A stretch of DNA of 61,879 nt, the filler included, from Hausera hauseri (lineage: Eukaryota), in the NCBI GenBank assembly GCA_046269625.1. It is 11 parts of 11 records of this genome, joined end to end, with 100 filler letters (N's around TTAATTAATTAA, not from the genome) between each part and the next. Parts side by side here need not be neighbours in the genome. Positions count along the whole stretch, not along the records: positions 1 to 7,187 come from JBJURY010032336.1; 10 more parts are not named here. The stretch is one strand, 5' to 3'. Shown one piece after another: positions 2,240-4,038 of the stretch (its first letter is position 1; each line of letters opens with the position of its first letter). A program made the position numbers and the translations under genes. The notes beneath the pieces are model-generated. The model was not told the DNA's origin. It made no database searches and was given only the letters and a program-made list of their open reading frames with translations.

Positions 2240-4038
2240 TTGCCGAAGGGTGTAATAATAGCCATTAAAATTTTGCAAGAAAATCTTGTCAAGGTGAATA
2301 TCTCATACCATTTATGATTGCTTGAATTATCGCTTTTACCAACTGGATCGAAAAATAAATTGCTAGGAACCCTGACGCAGTTTGTCCGAATACTAGGAAT
2401 CTTCCCCAAATTTTGTACAATATTTCCGTAGTTACCCTTTTGGAGTAGTTGACGCCAAGTAAAGATTCCCACTTCACTTAGTAACGTGAGTCCTCTAGTA
2501 TTGTGTGCATTGCTCTGTTTGATTCGTGTGCACTGACGAGGGAAAGCGAGAAATTGTCGAAACATCTCTACTTCTTTTGGGCAGTAAATACCCTTCGCGG
2601 CCGTATCTTGGAATTTATTATCGGTTATCTCCTTCATTACGTTTGTTCCTCTTAATCTGGTGGGCGGAGTAATTATATTACCATTTGGTAAACTTATCCA
2701 ATCGGTTTCGCTTCGTCTGAACATTTGTTCGCCTAAGCTGATCTTGCAGTCTCTCAAAATTGTCGGTTGGGTATAGTTTGCCAACAAAACTCTGGTAATT
2801 GGTGTTACTAATCTCGGTACATCTTGGTATATCACTAGAAGATCTTTTATGCACCTCTTCTCTTCCACGTTAATAGGTACGTACTTCTTTTCACATTCGT
2901 AGGTCAACAAGACCTCTCCGGTTACTCGTCCAGAGACGCTCTCTTTCATTGGAATTATTAGTAGCGCTAGTTCGGGGTTGGCATATATTAAGGCCAGCTT
3001 AGTTCTCATAACCTCCAAGTTTAATTTGCAGTCACTTGTTATCATCTTGTGGTACAAATCGGTTATTTCTGTTTGTCCTTTATAGTAGAAATAGTCGTCG
3101 CCGTTTTTTAGATAGTTCTCGATTTGAATGTCCTAAGTCTCGAGCTTGAACGTTCTGGCGTTTATTTCTGTCTCAGATACAACGAATGCTTCTTAATTGG
3201 TGGCATACATTATGACACGGCATCTCGTGAGCACGTCTTTCTTCACAAATTTTAATCCATGAGTATCTGAAATCAGTAACGTAGGTGCGGTTTGTTCGGT
3301 TACATCTTCTCGCGTTTTACAGTTGCCTTCTGCATTACTTATGCATCGCTTTCCGGTCGTTTTGCTCCTTAATTCTAATAAAGTTGCAATCAGTCTTGGT
3401 CGGAGGTTCCCAAATTACTAGGGAACTTCGAAAGGAACACGTGCCATCTTGAATGTGGCACCTGTGGTTTTATGTGTAAAGTTTAGTAACGCTATAGAAC
3501 ATTACCTTCTGTAGGCGCATTTCGGTTTTATAAAAATCTACTACTACGATGTTCGACTCTAATCCTTTTCTAGTATCGTAATCTGCACAATAATAATGAC
3601 CGGTGTGCATGTCTTGTCTTCCTGCTGCCAATTTATACACTCTGATTATTTTCCCTTGCTGCATTTCCAATTCCACGCCGCTCCATTTTATTCTTCACGT
3701 CTCTCTAGCTTGTTTACAATGCTCACGTTCTAAGTTCATCGGTATTGGTGAGGTCGTTGGCTTGATTATTGATGAGTGTCCATGTACCAGTCCACAATAA
3801 AAAATGCTGCGAGATCGTCGCAACATATATTCGACTCCGTCTAACGTAACTAGTTCGCGTTGTTGATATAACACGTAATTTTTCTCTTTGTTTCTAATTT
3901 ATGTGATCTCTCGTCTTCGCACATTTCTAAGTCCATTAATGAGTATTTTTGCCCAAGTCTAAATTTGTCACGGTCATACACTGTAATGGCACCTATGTGC
4001 CTTATTAGCATCATCATGGTTAAGAAGTTAATTAACCA
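2240..4038 (-). pseudogene. Env-like class III fusion glycoprotein (chuvirus G / herpes gB-like), copy A
   Basis: Hydrophobic leader WLINFLTMMMLIRHIGA, then ITVYDxDKF..YSLMDLEMC, RSIFYCGLVHGHSS, YHKMITSDCKL, TGEVLLTYEC, RCIKDL.VIY, AKGIY..EVEMFRQFLAFP, and TM WGRFLVFGQTASGFLAIYF..LVKAIIQAIING. This cysteine and motif series is characteristic of chuvirus-type glycoproteins. Confidence 0.8.

Follow-up and report, generated by a model that had tools for sequence, protein, structure and literature searches.

A decayed Ty3/gypsy element of Hausera hauseri with a predicted class III envelope gene upstream of pol, likely in one polyprotein

The first piece of a 61,879-nucleotide stretch of DNA from Hausera hauseri (assembly GCA_046269625.1; hereafter the window) is, in our reading and with high confidence, a decayed Ty3/gypsy element in which a predicted class III env gene lies upstream of the protease, reverse transcriptase, RNase H and integrase (PR-RT-RH-IN), likely as part of one polyprotein, in an arrangement like that of the GAG-ENV-POL errantiviruses and of Burro. 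The env gene is notable for its place before pol in one frame, a layout that does not appear in the earlier note on this DNA and that has already been published. The window is made up of 11 pieces of 4-7 kb each with N-padded linkers between them and a G+C content of 0.30-0.41, and the microsatellites and transposon fragments scattered across it give it the appearance of a fragmentary animal assembly. The element is present as copies A to E:

1-7187, minus strand: copy A, the entire first piece being one retroelement
25069..27750, minus strand: copy D, env tail, PR, RT and RH fragment (DNA identity 68%, and translation)
32300..35236, plus strand: copy E, upstream ORF and N-terminal half of env (DNA identity 65%), the basis of the folded model
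41353..48689, minus strand: copy B, upstream ORF, env, PR, RT, RH and IN (DNA identity 79% over 5.6 kb)
49139..53672, plus strand: copy C, env anchor, PR, RT, RH, IN and a short, mildly hydrophobic tail to the contig end (DNA identity 81%)

None of these copies is intact, the longest piece measuring 7.3 kb, and copy A is a dead element. Corresponding pieces of copies E and A are 57-59% identical. All 30 bins of the stretch searched are covered by contigs of one run, the single run listed for it and with no RNA run listed beside it, 5,706 of the 10,594 contigs being less than 90% alike; this cover and divergence fit a large, old family and carry no copy-number value. We note that copies C (49139) and D (~27750) start inside the env anchor or tail at differing points, which may reflect chance fragmentation or a repeated loss of the ectodomain. 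Within copy A the following features were assigned:

1..720, minus strand: reverse transcriptase, broken and cut by the start of the window, with a YLDD motif near 250 (copy B DNA identity 79%)
1266..1559, minus strand: retroviral-type aspartic protease (Pfam RVP, E 1.7e-5)
1695..2240, minus strand: linker of ~190 codons between env anchor and protease, no known domain
2313..2402, minus strand: membrane-proximal and transmembrane segment of env (hydropathy 1.94; PF24664 profile 521-575)
~2290..4041, minus strand: env gene of ~590 codons, gB/chuvirus-type class III fusion glycoprotein by Pfam PF24664 in three pieces, with 146 relatives at E<=0.001
3979..4035, minus strand: hydrophobic stretch opening env, predicted as a likely internal signal peptide (hydropathy 1.63 in copy A, 1.78 in copy E)
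4042..7187, minus strand: upstream ORF region of ~1,050 codons, broken, mostly helical by eye, cut by the contig end
4555..4569, minus strand: GRPRK motif, present in copies A and B
4759..4998, minus strand: putative ubiquitin-like domain (profile of copies A, B and E against the PDB, best E 0.0014)

The envelope gene of ~600 codons announced by the earlier note stands as to its length and lies on the minus strand, but it is not open, being interrupted in copy A by five in-frame stops (3697, 3472, 3195, 3135 and 2480) and four frame changes (near 3890, 3360, 2525 and 2290). When the env pieces of copy A were translated with X at the stops, the Pfam family PF24664 (Monjiviricetes fusion glycoprotein) matched the three main pieces co-linearly and above its curated cut-off, at profile positions 55-227 (E 6.7e-8), 235-510 (E 2.8e-21) and 521-575 (E 1e-9), and the env pieces of copies B and E matched it too, copy E with E 7e-20. 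Six motif blocks had been quoted for the gene, and three of them do match copy A: LYHKMI..DCKL at 3057, the KGIY block at 2595 with its spacing relaxed by one, and the W..F..FG...SGFLAIYF block, as quoted, at 2408. The remaining three are composites of sister copies, copy E supplying YDC and C.LRR.RSIFHC (34263 and 34413) and copy B supplying IFHCG and DLPV.Y (46832 and 45886), and copy A differs at each of these places. The description of the ectodomain as Cys-rich is to be toned down, with a modest 16 Cys in the ~590 codons of copy A, although 11 Cys of the N-terminal 344 residues of copy E are conserved in at least 90% of 89 aligned sequences. Hydropathy, read from a plain Kyte-Doolittle scan, peaks at both ends of env, as expected of the signal peptide and C-terminal anchor of a class III fusogen, and the hydrophobic stretch that opens the gene is in frame with the upstream ORF. 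No furin site of the form R-x-K/R-R was found in the six pieces containing env, in agreement with the gB-type errantivirus envs of PMC13524379, where, in the sections drawn on here, this site is not always conserved.

A fold was predicted for residues 1-344 of copy E, which lie in a single frame, from an alignment with 88 relatives (87 HMMER matches and one cluster member, picked for their coverage of the N-terminal half). The model reached a pLDDT of 86.6 and a pTM of 0.73, and a single-sequence fold without the alignment, with a pLDDT of 32.4, was discarded; the model thus represents the N-terminal half of copy E and not copy A, and for the C-terminal half of env the evidence is that of the profile. 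It displays the features of the class III fold, namely a long beta-hairpin fusion domain, a PH-like domain and a central helix. In Foldseek the best viral structural match was the Gurupi chuvirus-like 1 glycoprotein (E 3.7e-21, TM 0.67, 20% identity), with further chu-like virus glycoproteins next in rank, and all 40 of the PDB matches listed were herpesvirus gB, the best at E 3.0e-8. In VIA-align HSV-1 gB ranked highest (Z 9.9, 270 residues aligned at rmsd 6.7); of 48,161 chains, 7 reached Z>=5, all of them class III fusogens, comprising gB, the rhabdovirus G of Chandipura virus and the thogotovirus GP of Bourbon virus. Searches of the PDB by sequence gave no match with a single env sequence and one match, by chance, with a 5-row env profile; the env family profile returned gB in 37 of 38 rows. 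Profile and predicted fold together confirm env as a predicted class III fusogen of the chuvirus-G/gB type, as the earlier note had proposed, and the structural comparison that it called for, with gB and chuvirus G, finds both; profile and structural likeness to class III proteins, on the absence of which that note would have abandoned its proposal, are thus both present.

Upstream of env, the broken ORF region showed no family above cut-off, no gag signature and no CCHC knuckle, the knuckle being absent from all six frames of the window; the sequence available between env and the contig end is 3.1 kb in copy A and 3.6 kb in copy E. Neither LTR, primer site nor target-site duplication was seen in contigs that end within the element, and gag and the LTRs would lie beyond the contig ends or be absent. 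A ubiquitin-like domain upstream of env is a candidate of moderate strength: the best 13 of its 17 PDB matches are ubiquilin, ISG15 or one RIKEN entry, and the Pfam ubiquitin family matches one of the three copies at E 5e-4, below cut-off. The nearby GRPRK sequence, which we take to be an AT-hook-like motif, recurs as GRP[RK] ahead of env in 4 of 31 long relatives. With a 3-row profile, the region before env had no PDB or Pfam match to a Bcl-2-like domain, and its hhalign comparison to four relatives gave a probability of 0.04, under that of shuffled controls; a Bcl-2 domain before env was provisionally set aside. One relative, P0041, has a weak Bcl-2 match.

Downstream of env, Pfam matches in copies A, B and C give the pol order PR-RT-RH-IN of Ty3/gypsy type. 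The piece of copy B that matches the copy A RT contains RVT_1 and RT_RNaseH, the pol of copy C matches rve and Integrase_H2C2, and PF17919/PF17917 occur in all 21 pol relatives. The integrase ends in a GPY motif, which we take as a gypsy-type sign. The linker between env and protease has no Pfam family in its copy B counterpart, and a conserved block of ~100 amino acids between PR and RT, searched as a 3-row profile for a dUTPase-like identity, gave zero PDB and zero Pfam matches.

Taken over all copies, env follows the upstream ORF and is itself followed by the ~190-codon linker, protease, RT, RNase H and integrase, and the env-linker-protease junction, with env directly upstream of pol, is repeated in copies A, B, C and D. 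One frame of copy B (43527-45791) takes in the C-terminal end of env, its anchor, the linker, the protease and the beginning of RT and has 4 stops in 755 codons versus 58 and 47 in the other frames, and PF24664 and RVP both fall within a single copy B translation. Between 32691 and 35234 in copy E, the upstream ORF and the N-terminal half of env lie in a common frame with 9 stops in 848 codons versus 97 and 74 in the others. The single polyprotein is a construct assembled from several copies, with copies E and A joining the upstream ORF to env and copy B joining env to PR.

Relatives of the element support the same layout. Searched by HMMER against 1.84 billion proteins, the C-terminal piece of env yielded the 146 relatives given above, and word-index protein searches with this piece confirmed 0 of 1,606 and 0 of 674 candidates; two metagenome scans returned 70 and 298 pattern matches, none of them confirmed. 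The top 23 of the 146 include 13 proteins of at least 748 amino acids, of which 11 have a protease after env in the same chain, five also carry RT and two terminate with env. A CCHC knuckle is found upstream of env in five long env relatives, and a separate pol-based search added one further intact gag-env-pol chain (P0015) among its 21 matches. The best env matches, with E down to 7e-39, are envs within retroelement polyproteins, and stand-alone proteins of ~650 amino acids appear from E 1e-9. An env tree built from 88 of the 89 aligned rows places the query in a group of 17 (SH-aLRT 96), whose other members are 12 long polyproteins and 4 shorter proteins, with the stand-alone glycoproteins outside; 4 of the 16 labels in this group, those of short proteins, were assigned by hand. 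For RT-RNase H, the best 8 of 28 BLAST scores belong to the 8 env-pol proteins, with which the query also groups in the tree (support 85); both trees come from rapid, unbootstrapped searches and contain neither named viruses nor GyDB references. Because the two trees agree in grouping the query with env-pol proteins, env and pol have travelled together. At least two aspartic-protease-like stretches lie between env and RT in several relatives (P0034, P0035, P0036, P0038, P0043, P0046, P0179 and P0182), and P0179 has ankyrin and C2H2 matches as well. The top env relative, P0033, a complete env-pol polyprotein, is filed as a protein of a Flavobacteriaceae MAG and is likely of animal origin, its DNA having been misassigned to a bacterial genome in binning.

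Selection was estimated between copies A and B, the only pair for which ratios are given since dS is saturated for A versus E. The dN/dS of env is 0.108 (bootstrap 0.07-0.15, 423 codons), that of the upstream ORF 0.20, that of the linker 0.26 and that of the protease region 0.43 with a wide interval of 0.27-0.73 over 155 codons. These ratios include decay after insertion, so that the values while the element was active were likely lower. The low ratio of env indicates that it was kept as a protein while the subfamilies diverged, and its standing as the most constrained of the compared parts (0.11 versus 0.20-0.43) suggests that the envelope was needed for spread. The past infectivity that the earlier note entertained is only suggested by this purifying selection. 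No dN/dS value for env appears in the portions of the published accounts of this class compared here.

The earlier note had proposed that a gypsy lineage captured a viral fusogen. A recent capture of a chuvirus glycoprotein, specific to this family, we consider improbable. The chu-like virus glycoproteins at the top of the viral structural models would fit it (E 3.7e-21, at 20% identity), and the same has been proposed for mosquito Pao elements (10.1101/2020.02.15.950899, in the part used here), but the top sequence matches are polyprotein envs, far ahead of the stand-alone proteins, and env, in a tree without named viruses, groups with the same env-pol proteins as RT does. That env and pol travelled together speaks against a capture peculiar to this family, and since the nearest relatives are retroelement envs, with env and RT in the same polyproteins, any capture would be older than the family; the sections of PMC13524379 consulted likewise argue for an ancient env-pol association. 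Similarly doubtful is the notion that, in a GAG-ENV-POL arrangement, env and pol were genes of their own whose reading depended on frameshift, readthrough or splicing. As every copy is broken, the breaks could conceal a programmed signal; between the env anchor and the start of the protease motif region, copy B has a single stop and copy A a frame change. The linker stop of copy B is, however, missing from the matching place in copy A, and an unbroken chain joins env to protease in 11 of the 13 long relatives.

A chance neighbourhood, in which an endogenous viral glycoprotein gene lies beside or within an unrelated gypsy element or the assembly is chimeric, could be imagined for 11 short pieces joined by linkers in a fragmentary assembly, yet it is refuted by the repetition of the env-linker-protease junction in four copies on separate pieces at 68-81% DNA identity; the linker is moreover under purifying selection, and intact relatives have the same order. 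We give equally little credence to a BEL/Pao element of the Anakin type in place of a gypsy one. BEL/Pao elements share the PR-RT-RH-IN order. Homologous glycoproteins are also described within BEL/Pao elements in the published material compared here, but the pol matches RVP, RT_RNaseH, RT_RNaseH_2 and Integrase_H2C2 and no Pao-type family, nor is any such family seen in the 21 pol relatives, and the integrase ends in the GPY motif. The gypsy assignment of the earlier note is thereby upheld by the Pfam families on the pol pieces, by the pol relatives and by the grouping of RT, and we retain a Ty3/gypsy element with env ahead of pol in a likely single polyprotein.

From the gene order, frames, predicted fold, selection and kinship described above we infer how such a polyprotein might have been processed and carried on particles. 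It would be made in the cytosol, where the hydrophobic stretch at 3979-4035 would act as an internal signal peptide and thread env into the ER, and cleavage by signal peptidase would free the env N-terminus. The anchor at 2313-2402 would bring the chain back to the cytosol, leaving the upstream ORF and Pol cytosolic and env in the ER lumen; because this single anchor turns the chain to the cytosol, Pol would stay tethered to the env tail until it is cleaved, probably by the element's own protease. Gag would be encoded beyond the contig end. Env trimers on budding particles would fuse these with an adjacent cell, by which the element would likely pass from cell to cell within one animal.

A possible second membrane protein may follow the integrase. 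A signal-plus-anchor protein stands after the integrase in 5 of 7 env-pol relatives, and at 53440-53609 (plus strand) of copy C the integrase frame continues, up to the contig end, with a mildly hydrophobic segment and the start of a Cys-containing one. The hydropathy of this tail is under the threshold of 1.8, Atlas scores it at 0.75 only, and its comparison with the relatives gave no match under the inclusion threshold, so a second surface protein behind the integrase of copy C is a lead only. More speculatively, and at rather long odds, the element might belong to a deep-branching GAG-ENV-POL lineage (~30% identity to the nearest sequences found) whose polyprotein would pair a gB-type fusogen before Pol with a target-cell-binding membrane protein behind the integrase, in the manner of herpesviruses, where gB works with a receptor-binding protein distinct from it, in a host perhaps outside Nematoda, Bryozoa and Platyhelminthes.

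Other features were noted elsewhere in the window. Two ORFs without a significant Pfam family lie on the minus strand, at 57879-58397, which by eye we take to be a gag-like helical stretch joined to an adenain-type protease motif, and at 60554-61081, which by eye presumably resembles a Polinton/Maverick major capsid protein. Abutting copy C on the opposite strand is a fragment of another gypsy pol (48790-49139, minus strand; pre-RT region by eye, no Pfam match). A Cys/His-rich ORF at 29517-29969 (plus strand), with PHD_4 as its best Pfam match at E 0.32, resembles, as we presume, the N-terminal PHD/zinc-finger part of NFX1-type host proteins. Fragments of Tc1/mariner-type DDE transposases occupy 20418-20900 (minus strand) and 40281-41142 (plus strand), with Pfam DDE_3 at E 1.4e-4 and 7e-12, respectively, and a degenerate GAAC/GAAA/GAAT microsatellite of ~4.5 kb extends over 8518-13100, with a run of GTA/GTT triplets ahead of it at 7810-8063.

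The element is a divergent family added to a published class and not a new kind. With the chuvirus/Monjiviricetes G (PF24664) env shares the family by profile and the predicted fold, the best chu-like models being 12-20% identical, and with herpesvirus gB it has the predicted fold in common at an identity of ~10%; unlike either, the env described here sits within the frame of a retroelement, after the upstream ORF and before pol. The nearest env-pol polyproteins (P0033, P0038, P0179, P0182 and others) are 24-33% identical in env and 37-44% in RT-RH and have in common with the element an env-PR-RT-RH-IN order in one chain; P0033 and P0182 also show weak matches to its ubiquitin-like and helical upstream parts. 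Several of these polyproteins depart from it in repeated protease domains or a Bcl-2-like stretch. A gB-type env in a gypsy element, which the earlier note regarded as unusual, is reported in Ty3/gypsy elements across metazoans (Chary and Hayashi, eLife 2026, PMC13524379), where the GAG-ENV-POL order is described, in the sections compared, from Nematoda, Bryozoa and Platyhelminthes. Smed_errantivirus_1-6 of Schmidtea mediterranea (Cys type C1a) have a Ty3/gypsy pol with a gB-type env before it, as here, and copy E, compared by eye, agrees with the six Schmidtea C1a env rows in the order of eight Cys across domains I-II and in the motifs of domain II. Of the 229 sequences listed there, 2 contain the word YATN, both of them from Schmidtea, and TEHP, the insect type in the rows shown, occurs 90 times. 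On this kinship a flatworm host is more likely than not. The Smed errantiviruses are intact and often multi-copy, whereas all copies here are broken.

Planarian Burro/GYPSM1 is a giant gypsy polyprotein with a ubiquitin/SUMO-like domain and an internal region of up to 25 kb, whose env, with mononegavirus-type glycoprotein matches, lies in frame between gag and pol, and decayed Burro fragments occur in Dugesia japonica (Arkhipova and Yushenova, GBE 2019, PMC6431247, in the part compared here). Burro shares with our element an env in frame between an N-terminal ORF and PR-RT-RH-IN, as pieced together from copies E and B, and a ubiquitin/SUMO-like domain upstream of env; of its Bcl-2-like, BIR, ankyrin, MATH and dUTPase-like parts, none was detected in our element, and the missing Bcl-2-like and dUTPase-like matches count against full membership of Burro. 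The Anakin elements, mosquito Pao elements with a chuvirus glycoprotein for which capture has been proposed (Dezordi et al., 10.1101/2020.02.15.950899), likewise carry a homologous gB-like glycoprotein inside an LTR retroelement, but on a BEL/Pao backbone, and the three mosquito BEL rows in the published alignment end domain II in the HPxI type, like insect gypsy envs, where the element of H. hauseri has the YATN type.
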